A stretch of DNA of 64,000 nt from Truepera sp. (GTDB lineage: Bacteria > Deinococcota > Deinococci > Deinococcales > Trueperaceae). The position numbers are program-made. The stretch lies in NCBI GenBank assembly GCA_965218435.1, contig CBDCKW010000009.1, positions 3,880,607 to 3,944,606 on the forward strand, given 5' to 3'. This document shows, piece after piece, positions 1 to 64,000 of this stretch. Each line of letters starts with the position of its first letter. The first letter of the stretch is position 1.

Positions 1-3000
1 CTGTGAGGCAGGACAGCGACCAGCGCGACCTGCATGGGTTCTGTGAACAGACCCACACCCCGGTGCGCCATCGAGAGAATGGCGGATGGGTTCATGATAG
101 AGATATCGAGCGTGCGCTCAAAAACGCGGCGAATCGAGTCCGGATTATTCGCGCCGAAAAGACTGAAGCTGCCGAGTTCGTCACCTTGGCTTTGGAGCGC
201 GATGGTCGTCTCGCGGTACGGCCAATCCGCTTCGGTCATCATGTATGACACGGGCTCGAGCATGATTTTGGCGCGGATACCGAGGGGATCAACTGCGCCG
301 ACGGAGCTGACTGAAGGTACACCGCCGGGTTTCAGAGGCACCTCGGACTGCGTGCCGGATTGCGCGTCGGTTTTGGGTTTTTGGTCACTCATCGTTTTTC
401 CTCCAAAGTGTTGGTTGTCAAACTACTGGTCATCTCTGAGTCTGCCTCGAGTTTGGCGAGTTCTTCGTGCATCACCATCCACCCGTTCGAGGCACGCGGC
501 CCGCCCACAGAGACGCTGAGCAGTGTGGCGAGCGCCTCGAGCTGTTGCCGGGTACAGCCGTGGCGAACAGCCCAGCGGGTGTGTGACCTGAGCTGCGGCT
601 CGGCACCGCCCTGAGTAATGAGTGCGGCGATAACGATGAAACTGCGGTCGCGCAGACTGAGTTCATCATCAACCCAGATGCCTGCGGCTGAGAAGATCAT
701 TTCGTCGCCGAAACGCTCGCCGACACGTTCGGTAAACCACGATGCGACCTCCTCACGCGGAATCTGAAACTGGCTTGCGTAGGCGTCTAAACCTTGTTCG
801 TAACGTTTGTTGTCCACTCCTAAGTCACCTCCAACTGACAGGCTATATTCTAGACTAGTGTATCCAAATATGTCAAGTGTATCCAATTAATAAGTTGTGA
901 AAACTTGCTATAGTGAGCTGCTAAGCTGTTTTAGAAAGTTGAGCCAAATCAGCAAAGTTAGGGTTGCCGTACTGTTTTTGGCAGGTTAAGTGGTGAGTCT
1001 CGTCGTTGGGAGCATGTCAAGTAAGTTGACATCAGTTCAAGGTTTGTCTCAGGGCTGGTAATTGCACCAGTGTTGCTGAAAGCCGGTTTTTAGGCTGAGG
1101 TGTGTAAGCTACCGAGCTAGAGGTGATGATTAACCGCAAAGTTGACCGGATGGCGGACAGGCCCAGAAGCGGCCAAGACCGGTAGGTGCTGCTTTAGGGC
1201 CAAGACAGGTGCTATTTTGTCAAAGACAGGGGTGCCAGCAGCGTTCCCTCAAGTTTAAGGCTCACGGCTATCTGCCTAAAAGCTACTTCGAGCGCGGCTT
1301 AGACGCTCTTCGCTCAGCTATCCTTACTGGTCACGCCTCAACTTATAGCAGCCTCCGAGATCGTCTCAATCTTTTGTCCCGGTAGTGAGGTACACCACCT
1401 TGAGCCAAAGTCGCCTTTGATAACGGCCTCTGTTAGTGACCAGTAAACCCCTTACACTGCCGAGCAACCGAGGCAGACAGCTCCTTATAAGCCTTCTCTA
1501 CTCAGGTTGAGACAATCTAAGCACCACCGGCACATTTTCTTTTTGGCTGCCTACTTGAAATGTAAAAACGGCGTTTTGCTGCGTAGTAAAACAAAACCCG
1601 CGGGCCAGCGAACAGAGCGAAAAGGTTGCCTCGAGGGGGGCCTGATACGTTCCCGGTTTCGTTCCTGCCGGTACGCTGAGCTGCCACGTTACAGGCTGCA
1701 AGGTGGTGTAGTAAATCTCCGGTTTGTCATGCCACGGTTCGCCGCTGACTTTGGCTTTAAGAATTGCGCGGTCAAAAGGATTACTCAGTTCTAAACGGGG
1801 TGGGTTCAGACGGCTGATCAAGATGCCCGGAGGCGTTTTGACGATGAGCTGTAGCGGCTCGAGTTCAAGTTTCTGCTGTGCGCTGCCTAAACTGCTCAGC
1901 ACTAAGATCAAGACCAACGCAAGCTTCATTTAGCTAAGGCGGCCTCGATAGCACGCTCTAAGGGTTTGATGCCAGCGGGGTAGACGCTCGAGATTTCTCC
2001 TTGCTGCACGCGTTTAACGACGCCTTGCCGGTCAACCAGGTAAAAACTCGGCCAGACACTGTTTTTGTACGCCCGCCAGGTCGCGGAATTGTTGTCTTGC
2101 ATGACCGGCCAGCTGACGCCCTCACGTATGAGCGCCTCTTGAACGTTTCCCAGCGGTTTATCCGACTCGAACTCGGGGGTGTGGACACCGACAATTTCAA
2201 ATCCTTGATCCTTAAACTGCTCGTACCACCCTTGTAAGGTTGGCAGGCTGCGGGTGCAGTTGTAACACGAATAGACCCAGACATTGACCAAAACGACTTT
2301 GCCGCGCAAATCGCCGATACTGAGCGGCTCAGAGTTGAGCCACTGCCCACCGGGGATAAACTCGGGCGCAGGTGTCCCTACTTTTTGGGCTATTCCAGGA
2401 GTAACCAGAGTAACCAACATGAAACTCACCAGCAAGGCTAAGGTGACAGCCCTTGCCCGTCCTTTGGCCCAACCGCTCGGTAACCTCACCTAAACCATCG
2501 CCTGTCGGTTGTCGAGACCGCTTGCGCCGCTCGGGTGCGGAGGCTGCTGTTCGGTAATTTGCTGGTCGCCGTTTTTGTCCGTACAGCGCACCGTAAAGGT
2601 ATGCTCACCTGAACTAAAGGGCCACTCGAAACGCCACAGTACCCAGGTGAGGTCTGAGACCGGTTTGCGCAGTTCGGCCTTCTGCCAGTCGCCGCCGTCT
2701 ACTTGCAATTCAACTTTTGAAACTCCCCGTGCGCCCGCGTAAGCGATCCCGCCGACGGGAATTTTTTCGTTGCTGCTAGCTGCGCCAGCGATCATCATAT
2801 TTGTCGCCACGGTGTCAATCACCGAGGTTTCTTTGACCCTCGCCTCGCGGTCCCACGACCGCACGACCCAGTAACCCGGTGCCCACGCGTCCACCGCTTC
2901 AACCGTCTCAATCCACTTGGGCTGCTTCATGCCGTAGTGGTCGGGGATAAAGATGCGGAGCGGAAAACCGTGTTGGATCTGGAGCGGCACCCCGTCCCAG

Positions 3001-63000: not shown

Positions 63001-64000
63001 TCAAAATTCACGCGGCTATCATAACAGCTTGGCTGCTGGGGCGCGGCTGACGTATTTTTTGAAGTTGGTAAAAATGCTCAAGAAGCGAGAACACAGCATA
63101 TAGAACACAGAAGGGAGAAAAGCCTTTTCAATCTGACTTCTTTTTACGTTTCAGCGTCCTCAACCAGCTTTTCCGGGATGACCATTTTTTAGACTGCTTC
63201 TTCGGGCTTCGCAGCCCCAACGATCCGGTTACGCCCCCCTTTTTTGGCGCGGTAGAGCGCCTCGTCTGCGCGTTTAAGGAGTGCCGCGCGGCCGTGCGCG
63301 TGTTCGGGGTAGGTCGCTACGCCCATAGAAACCGTAATACTGCCGAGTCCGACCCCGTGATCTGTGAGCGACAACAGCGAGACGGCTTTGCGCAGCGATT
63401 CGGCGCGGACGAGCGCGTCCTCGGCGCTGAGCCCCGGCTGCAACAGTAAAAACTCCTCGCCTCCAAAGCGGCACGCCACGTCGCCCGCACGGATATGGGT
63501 TTGCACGAGGTTACCGAGTGCCCGGAGTACGGCGTCACCGGCGTCGTGGCCGTGCAGGTCGTTGTAACGCTTGAAATGGTCCACATCAAACATCACCGCG
63601 CTGATGGGCTCGCCCCGGCGGGTGGCGCGGTGCAGCTCGAGGTCTAAAGTCTCTTCTAAATGCCGCCGGTTAAAGAGCCCGGTGAGCGGATCGCGGATAG
63701 ACTGTTGCAACAGGCTCTCGCGGAGCCGCAGGTTTGAGAGGGCGAGCGCGAGCTGTTCGGTCACGGTTTCAACAAACCGCTCGGTTGCTCCGGAGGGCGT
63801 CGCAGCAGGATCGTCGCTATAAAGGTACAAAACGCCCAAGGGCTCACCTTGCGTGATGAGCGGTGTGCAGAGGCTTTGACTCGGGGCCGGCGTCGGCGCG
63901 TGCTGGCAGACGACCCCGTGTGCGCCGCTGACAAGCTGCGTTTTGCCCCGGCGGAGCGCCCAACAGTCCGCCGGGGTATAGACCCGGTCGCCTACTTCTT

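Follow-up and report, generated by a model that had tools for sequence, protein, structure and literature searches.

Known systems closest to the CTCGAG palindrome

To our knowledge, HIP1 (GCGATCGC) is known from one phylum and has stayed unexplained for three decades. Restriction sites are normally avoided in genomes. In Neisseria and Pasteurellaceae, DNA uptake sequences occur at about 1–2 copies per kb, accumulate by drive, and affect codons and amino acids; they are 9–12 bp long, non-palindromic, and are not methylation sites. HIP1 and the alternate HIPs of cyanobacteria are short palindromes with about 2 copies per kb (PMC4390886, PMC5861425, PMC13756078). Both coding DNA in every frame and non-coding DNA are enriched for them, they are conserved between genomes, and they are accompanied by orphan methyltransferases that can stand in for one another, some rich genomes being without the enzyme.

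The palindrome CTCGAG of Truepera sp. (genome G000) resembles the cyanobacterial HIPs in these properties, although for G000 itself the tie to a methyltransferase is indirect, and its extended form GC-TCGA-GC parallels the GC-GATC-GC of HIP1. The survey's finding that it is HIP1-like was supported by the occurrence in all frames and in non-coding DNA, the conserved sites, the orphan methyltransferases, and the methylation in relatives. However, the word and the phylum are different, and the GmeC model of HIP1 involves m5C/m4C, whereas the mark reported for relatives of G000 is m6A on the hexamer. CTCGAG is usually a 6-mer and only sometimes an 8-mer (2,147 of 8,390 copies in G000; 1,817 of 2,026 in G004, the same count as in the survey), its fold excess is lower (4–8-fold), no significant periodicity was found, and it has been lost in whole families. 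The HIP1 core CGATCG reaches 0.13 of its expectation on the main contig, C9. CTCGAG is thus a HIP-like variant and not HIP1. Our literature search found no description in print of a CTCGAG excess in Deinococcota.

Other systems share some traits with it. Dam/MutH of Gammaproteobacteria also has an orphan m6A methyltransferase, a palindromic site, and a possible MutS/MutL link, but here no MutH was found, MutL has endonuclease motifs, and the excess is genome-wide rather than clustered. The orphan CTCGAG methyltransferase of Nocardia (PMC4752239) has the same word and is a conserved enzyme without a restriction partner; it differs in its m5C product, its V. (Vsr) gene, and its origin clusters, while here the enzymes are of the m6A type, Vsr is missing, and the distribution is flat. 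The PaeR7I/XhoI and TaqI systems are related to the methyltransferase families described below or to a partner of them, but in our case their nucleases have mostly disappeared, and the site is hyper-abundant instead of avoided. The uptake sequences resemble CTCGAG in density, accumulation by drive, and effect on codons and amino acids, and differ from it in being longer, non-palindromic, and unmethylated.

Abundance and distribution of CTCGAG

Contig C9 harbors 8,390 CTCGAG sites, one per 470 bp, and many relatives have the word at about this density. The even spread described before was reproduced, with 191–246 sites per full 100 kb, a gap CV of 0.95, and 7 sites in the densest 500 bp. The count is 5.65 times the order-2 Markov expectation, against 1.13 times for the next palindrome, and 57 of the 64 six-base palindromes fall below 1.0, which agrees with the reported avoidance of most of them. 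With a codon-aware expectation, CTCGAG reaches 3.67 and the next palindrome 1.63, as in the survey (1.6-fold). In the window, which is the whole 64-kb stretch analyzed, 119 dispersed copies were counted between positions 255 and 63641 (one per 538 bp, 27 of them as GCTCGAGC), compared with 19.8 ± 4.3 in 100 shuffles; four lie within 204 bp at 40016..40219.

The ratios of observed to synonymous-shuffle counts by frame were 5416/1640, 430/57, and 1167/213 with our own gene calls, close to the earlier 5513/1586, 472/63, and 1211/225. In-frame Leu-Glu pairs account for two thirds of the sites, and the other frames show 7.6- and 5.5-fold enrichment. Spacers of 10–300 bp hold 488 sites, 7.5 times the expectation. 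The earlier intergenic figure of 2,140 was not reproduced: 1,124 sites lie outside our gene calls, and 2,140 added to the earlier frame counts exceeds 8,390.

No convincing difference between leading and lagging strands (0.784 vs 0.789) and no convincing helical or long-range periodicity was found; the best peak was at 3.4 kb, and a 72-kb peak was within noise in a simple Fourier test, which differs from the published HIP periodicity method. The 100-kb bins are flat, without a site cluster of the Nocardia origin type, the origin position itself not being located; a 632-aa ORF chosen by a DnaA-like motif was not confirmed as dnaA and was not used. A repeat or hairpin family was rejected because the intergenic flanks are nearly all different (1,118 distinct 18-mer contexts), and long hairpin arms are rare. 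Transposase-like genes were seen inside some of the largest CTCGAG gaps.

Gain and loss of sites

In orthologous genes, CTCGAG was gained about 2.7 times faster than control codons (bootstrap 1.9–4.0) and lost at 0.14 times their rate, about 7 times slower (bootstrap 0.09–0.20). The sites are therefore conserved beyond codon conservation, and 266 of 337 and 261 of 311 sites were retained. The pattern fits selection or biased conversion, not gain alone. Whatever the level of rate heterogeneity, a one-parameter selection/conversion model never differed from the free model by more than 0.7 log-likelihood units, with S of about 3 for CTCGAG and 0.2–0.3 for control dicodons. The final fits used CTN codons only, with TTR pairs dropped, which reduced 1,172 Leu-Glu pairs to about 650. 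A 12-state rate model giving a 71-fold gain was rejected because this value came from TTA/TTG codons, and how often these are used varies with the base before them. All one-step neighbors of CTCGAG are drained at synonymous positions, and divergence around the sites was not lower beyond about 10 bp. A force that acts site by site at the DNA level appears to maintain CTCGAG, with S of about 3 and odds of about 20:1 over its one-step neighbors.

Methyltransferases and methylation

Published SMRT tables cover four cultured Deinococcota, and in three of them, Marinithermus hydrothermalis, Meiothermus chliarophilus, and M. ruber, m6A is listed at CTCGAG with no restriction partner given (PMC4752239 S3 Table; enzymes not matched to our families). 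No CTCGAG methylation is listed for the fourth, Allomeiothermus silvanus DSM 9946, and this strain is rich in the word (113 sites in 50 kb of plasmid, 4.6-fold).

Across the order, the methyltransferase belongs to one or another of three unrelated families, which substitute for each other. Family B is PaeR7I-like (59.5% identical to annotated paeR7IM), family C is M.TaqI-like (E 1e-126), and the partner nuclease of family A in other phyla is XhoI/PaeR7I-like (E 1.6e-4). Family A or B occurs in 26 of 29 MutL-positive and 13 of 32 MutL-negative family genomes, and in genus g39 all 15 genomes have one or the other, none both. The earlier objection that the methyltransferase is missing from several rich genomes is largely answered by family B; genus g41, with none of the three families in its three genomes, is not explained by it. 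Family f2 is without any of the three at the level of full-length orthologs.

The candidate m6A methyltransferase of G000 lies outside the window (C9:3672240-3673934, minus strand), and the 564-aa enzyme of this genome may read CTCGAG, to which the XhoI/PaeR7I-like partner nuclease of family A links it indirectly. The family A partner nuclease is absent from G000, and neither profile for a cognate nuclease matched among 11,426 ORFs. With no nuclease match and an enriched site, CTCGAG does not look like the target of an active type II restriction-modification system here. In other phyla, the genomes that host family A do not clearly avoid CTCGAG (0.78), nor, except for L032, do they have an excess of it. 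No clear word emerged when the target of family A was sought among words avoided in 58 foreign loci or by comparing G049 with G000, and a fold search of the partner nuclease returned weak restriction-type folds only (best E 5e-3).

The window has methyltransferase genes that are not tied to CTCGAG. These are a C5 cytosine methyltransferase (17537..18667, minus strand) with an unclassified 331-aa neighbor (16585–17580), and an ordinary restriction-modification pair on the minus strand, consisting of a fused HsdR-N/N6-methyltransferase gene (44575–46899) and a specificity-domain gene (43625–44641).

MutL, NucS and the spread of the excess

In G000, mutS (C9:2476002-2478527) and mutL (C9:2474335-2475999) lie outside the window on the minus strand. 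The survey had linked the excess to MutL, and in our own sample the CTCGAG:GAGCTC ratio was at least 3.4 in 26 of 29 genomes with MutL and at most 3.1 in 31 of 32 without. The contrast survives control for GC: at GC of at least 0.60, out-of-frame sites number 31 vs 8.2 in MutL-positive and 20 vs 18.7 in MutL-negative genomes. The link is otherwise weaker than it seemed. The MutL-negative genomes fall within one group of the RpoB tree (base support 0.48, weak) and 30 of the 32 have NucS; the link is mostly one group which exchanged MutS/MutL for NucS. A second MutL-free genus, g40 (MutL in none of six genomes), does not go beyond ratios of 2.1–2.4, and two or three lineages carry the whole contrast. 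No MutL-negative genome of at least 90% completeness shows a strong excess, and those that keep family A have 8 vs 9.0 out-of-frame sites.

MutL is not sufficient for the excess, because G023, G020, G030, and family f2 have it without a strong excess. In G023, MutL occurs with both enzymes, yet there is no excess (49 vs 44.8 in frame); G020, with MutL and family A, has an excess in frame (67 vs 26) but none out of frame (3 vs 3.0). G030 reaches a high ratio through low GAGCTC and has no out-of-frame excess (3 vs 2.6); the ratio is misleading, and we dropped it for out-of-frame counts. Family f2 has MutL in 81 of 82 genomes and no excess, as stated before, but its copy range is 26–2,175 in these 82 genomes and not 128–942.

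MutH was absent from G000, G049, G074, and G125, with one weak match in G032, the fifth genome searched, and G000 has no PF03852 or PF04480 match (Vsr/DUF559). MutL keeps its own endonuclease motifs, and a MutL of this kind is not known to depend on a methyl signal. Thus neither the MutH and endonuclease-free MutL of the Dam/MutH system nor the Vsr and C-to-T-limited depletion of Dcm/Vsr is seen here.

Possible mechanisms

We tentatively favor, at somewhat below an even chance, methyl-biased MutS/MutL repair of heteroduplexes as the driver of CTCGAG. An orphan N6-adenine methyltransferase would mark CTCGAG. Wherever a strand with CTCGAG is paired with one that differs from it by a single step, in a heteroduplex or after a replication mismatch, MutS/MutL repair would take out the unmarked strand more often, and CTCGAG would be gained more and lost less, like in biased gene conversion. 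The m6A mark would be what is read, and MutS/MutL would be its reader. The excess, the rate shift, the drained neighbors, the m6A published for relatives, and the spread of the methyltransferases, MutL, and NucS argue for this mechanism. The lack of MutH and Vsr, the MutL endonuclease motifs, the cases of G023, G020, A. silvanus, and g41, the lack of lower divergence near the sites, the small number of lineages behind the MutL contrast, and the missing CTCGAG avoidance in foreign family A hosts argue against it; no protein coupling the m6A mark to MutL was found.

A possible but rather unlikely alternative, already proposed for HIP1, is that CTCGAG works like an uptake sequence or Chi, as a signal that depends on methylation and serves DNA uptake, protection, or recombination, driven by biased uptake or integration, with the MutL link as a by-product of descent. 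Biased uptake gives a gain and loss pattern identical to the fitted model, one word is common to families f1, f3, and f4, and on the second replicons a smaller share of the possible CTCGAG positions is filled (C5 0.60, C3 0.44) than on C9 (0.79), with the transposase-bearing gaps pointing the same way. One report gives up to 100-fold higher transformation for methylated HIP1 (10.1101/2024.09.10.611283). On the other hand, such a signal does not predict that two MutL-free lineages lose the word. PD-(D/E)XK recombination nucleases are found both in rich and in poor genomes, and AddAB-like nucleases do not separate them. Family f2 and g38 are also without the excess or have an overall deficit; we take these for the Deinococcus-like and Thermus-like groups, which are naturally competent.

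It is unlikely that CTCGAG forms a binding array for a chromosome-organizing or replication protein, selected for even coverage. The sites are slightly under-dispersed (the gap CV of control words is 1.02–1.11), with 162 vs 246 gaps under 20 bp; Leu-Glu pairs are filled less near another site (0.58 at 6–12 bp, 0.84 at 200–400 bp), and retention is lower with a neighbor within 50 bp (80/113 vs 518/635 sites, p = 0.011). With fuller covariates, however, the distance effect is mainly below 20 bp, where some control words dip too, a convincing period is missing, and whole families live without CTCGAG.

Slightly less probable still is a neutral one-way mutational effect, in which methylated sites mutate less or a repair step of the Vsr or ratchet type only creates sites. 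When rate heterogeneity is strong (alpha 0.5), a difference of 1.2 units does not suffice to reject a protection-only model, CTCGAA/TTCGAG are drained about 3.5 times more than the remaining neighbors, and m5C CTCGAG enzymes are found with V. (Vsr) genes in Nocardia and Rhodopseudomonas. Against it, the creation-only model was rejected at all settings (7.6–26 units), G000 has no Vsr or DUF559, transversion neighbors are drained at all six positions, and the depletion is just as strong for further wobble palindromes, GTCGAT among them. Finally, Leu-Glu usage, codon bias, or base composition might create the excess as an artefact, for which the share of in-frame Leu-Glu sites and the raw 1.5–2 CTCGAG per kb of high-GC relatives without real excess might speak; this is hardly credible and is refuted for G000 by the out-of-frame and intergenic counts, as well as by 6,293 CTC-GAG against 312 CTC-GAA pairs where other codons give about 1:1.

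Implications

A wider form of methyl-biased repair, which we regard as doubtful, is that Deinococcota have a MutH-independent, m6A-guided MutS/MutL repair or gene conversion in which methylated CTCGAG picks the surviving strand. The word would drive itself and rewrite codons and amino acids, three interchangeable domesticated restriction methyltransferases would keep the mark, the drive would end when MutS/MutL is swapped for NucS, and the same logic would account for HIP1.

CTCGAG in Deinococcota is a second-phylum counterpart of HIP1 with a different word. Because the word, the methyltransferases, and MutS/MutL versus NucS have been gained and lost naturally, the competing models of HIPs (repair ratchet, uptake signal, chromosome structure) can be set against one another by comparison, and by knockouts in harmless cultured thermophiles with methylation already mapped. 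We predict that CTCGAG content and methylation may affect the transformation of these bacteria.

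Results

CTCGAG was the commonest hexamer on the chromosome (C9), with 8,390 copies or 5.65 times the order-2 Markov expectation, while the next-ranked palindrome reached only 1.13 times and most palindromes were avoided. It was present on all nine contigs, and the window held 119 copies against 19.8 in shuffles. Using our own gene calls (4,716 genes), observed and synonymous-shuffle counts by frame were 5416/1640, 430/57 and 1167/213, and spacers of up to 300 bp held 488 copies, 7.5 times the expectation. The survey's finding of an excess in every frame and between genes was thus upheld; its intergenic count of 2,140 was not reproduced, as these calls gave 1,124. 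Leu-Glu was encoded 6,293 times by CTC-GAG versus 312 times by CTC-GAA, with GAA and GAG about equal after other preceding codons. The Leu-Glu pair ratio was 1.25 versus 1.06 for Glu-Leu, and Val-Glu, Ile-Glu and Met-Glu were all below 0.9, a hint that the pull of CTCGAG reaches the protein sequence.

The sites were lone words with flanks unrelated to one another, which rules out a repeat family or a hairpin family as their source. G stood directly 5' of about half of them. The 8-mer GCTCGAGC made up 26% of the sites in this genome and 1,817 of 2,026 in G004, bearing out the earlier claim of a genome that iterates it. Density was flat along the chromosome, with at most 7 sites per 500 bp, in agreement with the even spread noted before; neither a strand difference between leading and lagging strands nor a convincing period was found on the chromosome. 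Spacing was slightly more regular than random, and sites tended not to lie close to one another; this effect was clear below 20 bp and, after covariates were added, weak at longer distances. Opportunities for the word were filled less on second replicons than on the chromosome. Contigs C6 and C8 (21 kb each) carried one CTCGAG per 192 and 309 bp, denser than the chromosome, in repeated contexts.

Other features of word usage and gene content were also observed. Strongly avoided palindromes in the 3.9 Mb of C9 included GGCGCC (26 copies), TTTAAA (24), GGGCCC (34), AGGCCT (29) and GGATCC (19). TTTAGA/TAGA words were enriched 3.7-fold on C9 by codon shuffle, and CCGTAA was enriched about 2.7-fold in stretches of G049 and G201, two of the five other genomes of the genus, but merely 1.5-fold here. 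A Dam-family methyltransferase is encoded at C9:2709552-2710493 (+), yet GATC is under-represented. Window positions 47595-59630 (-) hold a series of genes for secreted glycoside hydrolases (GH81, GH18, GH64, pectate-lyase-like) that have beta/gamma-crystallin-like modules in common, which suggests breakdown of fungal or algal cell walls.

Gain and loss were followed in orthologues from two relatives, 254 in about 400 kb of G049 and 254 in 381 kb of G201, whose four-fold-site identity was 53-54%. Where Leu-Glu was kept, CTCGAG was retained in 266/337 and 261/311 cases, respectively. Under a Markov model whose baseline rates came from control codons, with TTA/TTG pairs excluded because their usage depends on the preceding base, gain was 3.6-fold and loss 0.17-fold over three frames; in the main frame, gain was 2.7-fold (1.9-4.0) and loss 0.14-fold (0.09-0.20, gene bootstrap). 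Both rates are shifted. At each of the four levels of rate heterogeneity, a model of selection or biased conversion with a single parameter (strength S of about 3) matched the fit of the free model, against S of 0.2-0.3 for two control dicodons, and selection and drive are inseparable by this fit. Protection alone was rejected except under strong rate heterogeneity. Creation alone was rejected at every level, and a one-way mutational effect is very doubtful.

Among 150 other genomes of the phylum, g39 (15 genomes), g41 (3) and g42 (2) carried 1.4-3.4 CTCGAG per kb, and family f2 (82) fewer than 0.5. In g38 (27 genomes), CTCGAG occurred at 0.6-1.6 per kb with no excess over GAGCTC; the core TCGA was avoided, but 46% of the remaining TCGA was CTCGAG, with 130 CTCGAG versus 5 CTCGAC in 74 kb. 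The preference may therefore persist there under restriction pressure, though the codon-level count was below expectation (19 versus 54.5). Judging by size and gene content, f2 is probably Deinococcus-like, g38 Thermus-like and g39 Meiothermus-like. A contig labelled Myxococcota (L032) held 21 CTCGAG in 6.2 kb versus 4.7 expected, with a family A methyltransferase gene; it is either a Deinococcota fragment binned wrongly or another carrier.

Three methyltransferase families were found across the order. PaeR7I recognises CTCGAG and TaqI recognises TCGA. The family A gene of this genome (564 aa, C9:3672240-3673934, minus strand) has M.Eco57I-type domains and is probably the orphan g04821 of the survey. 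Family A occurred in 35/61 Trueperaceae and 12/15 g39 genomes, a thirteenth g39 match being left out as a weak cross-match. Its target may be CTCGAG, judging from sequence comparison: it is 23% identical to paeR7IM over 527 aligned columns, and 59/80 loci have a downstream partner gene whose product can be aligned to nucleases of the PaeR7I family (hhalign E 1.6e-4, probability 50%), with weak Pfam XhoI scores in 4/23 partners. These partners (L017-L096; for example, L033:5566-6423, +) form an unnamed nuclease family of about 290 aa, distantly XhoI/PaeR7I-like. None was found in this genome; G049 has a shorter, divergent copy (L122:866-1534, -). Family B, 59.5% identical to annotated paeR7IM, was present in the three g39 genomes not holding A, in 2/2 g42 genomes and in 5/61 Trueperaceae, four of these five without A. 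The M.TaqI-like family C was found in 27/27 g38 genomes and in g46 and g43, with an adjoining TaqI-type nuclease gene in 8/20 loci (L303-L321 in g38), and the g38 gene appears to be a domesticated TCGA methyltransferase. No member of A, B or C was found in the three CTCGAG-rich g41 genomes, and 50 kb of an Allomeiothermus silvanus plasmid held 113 CTCGAG, 4.6 times the expectation; both argue against a strict need for the methyl mark.

Rows of S1, S3, S4 and S5 and main-text passages of PMC4752239 report m6A at 94-99.5% of CTCGAG in Marinithermus hydrothermalis, Meiothermus chliarophilus and M. ruber, by type II enzymes without a listed restriction partner. In these parts, CTCGAG methylation is not listed for M. 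silvanus, Truepera is not among the organisms, and the main text treats CTCGAG just for Nocardia.

MutL was found in 29/61 Trueperaceae. All 32 negatives except G047 (87% complete) fell in one group of the RpoB tree, which was built with FastTree from 58 genomes and rooted at the midpoint, with a support of 0.48 at the base of that group; no RpoB match was obtained for G014, G040 and G059. NucS, described in passages of PMC5290159 as an alternative repair nuclease, was present in 30 of these 32 negatives. In this large group, NucS has replaced MutS/MutL, as judged from searches for mutL. G036 (one contig, 97% complete) had neither MutL nor NucS, and genus g40 had MutL in 0/6 genomes.

Out-of-frame counts, from 4-40 kb per genome mostly near rpoB, were 115 versus 18.6 expected in the 27 upper-group genomes; MutL-negative genomes gave 8 versus 9.0 where family A was present and 12 versus 9.7 where it was absent. 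In the eight upper-group genomes with GC of at least 0.60, the excess persisted (31 versus 8.2; 28 versus 7.2 without the unpublished genome G033, with the same conclusions), and therefore GC is not the cause of the MutL contrast. On the other hand, the two MutL-positive genomes of the lower group had none: G020 (3 versus 3.0; in-frame 67 versus 26) and G030 (3 versus 2.6; no methyltransferase found). G023 has MutL and families A and B, yet no excess, and f2 has MutL in 81/82 genomes at its low CTCGAG density, as the survey had cautioned. The proposed MutL link thus survived the control for base composition, and the kinship caveat stands as the negatives are nearly all one group. From two or three independent contrasts, MutL looks necessary in the sampled lineages; it is not sufficient.

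G023 is the sole genome of its genus without the excess. Behind its intact family B gene lies a gene for a PaeR7I-like nuclease, broken into two pieces (L330:3165-3856), and our guess is that restriction in the recent past may have depleted the CTCGAG sites of G023.

Discussion

CTCGAG behaves like HIP1, the cyanobacterial highly iterated palindrome, in three of the features tested, and it is not HIP1. Deinococcus and Thermus keep multiple chromosome copies. We tentatively consider that methyl-biased MutS/MutL repair might act as a conversion drive on CTCGAG, with several chromosome copies supplying the heteroduplexes. The MutL of this genome retains its endonuclease motifs, and neither MutH nor Vsr was found in it. 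This reading is near to the HIP1 model in the parts of PMC4390886 compared, but here the mark would be m6A and no MutH-like protein is known. That CTCGAG is an uptake or recombination signal is rather unlikely, and a binding array selected for coverage is improbable.

In the parts compared of the cyanobacterial literature (PMC4390886, PMC5861425, PMC13756078, 10.1101/2024.09.10.611283), no mention of CTCGAG was found in the two texts searched for it, nor of Deinococcus or Deinococcota in the first three. No published description of CTCGAG iteration in Deinococcota was found; most subscription journals and all HIP1 supplements lay outside the search, so an earlier mention is possible. What this study contributes is the link between the iterated word and published methylation, the three interchanging enzyme families, the swap to NucS with its counter-examples, and the rates at which CTCGAG is gained and lost.
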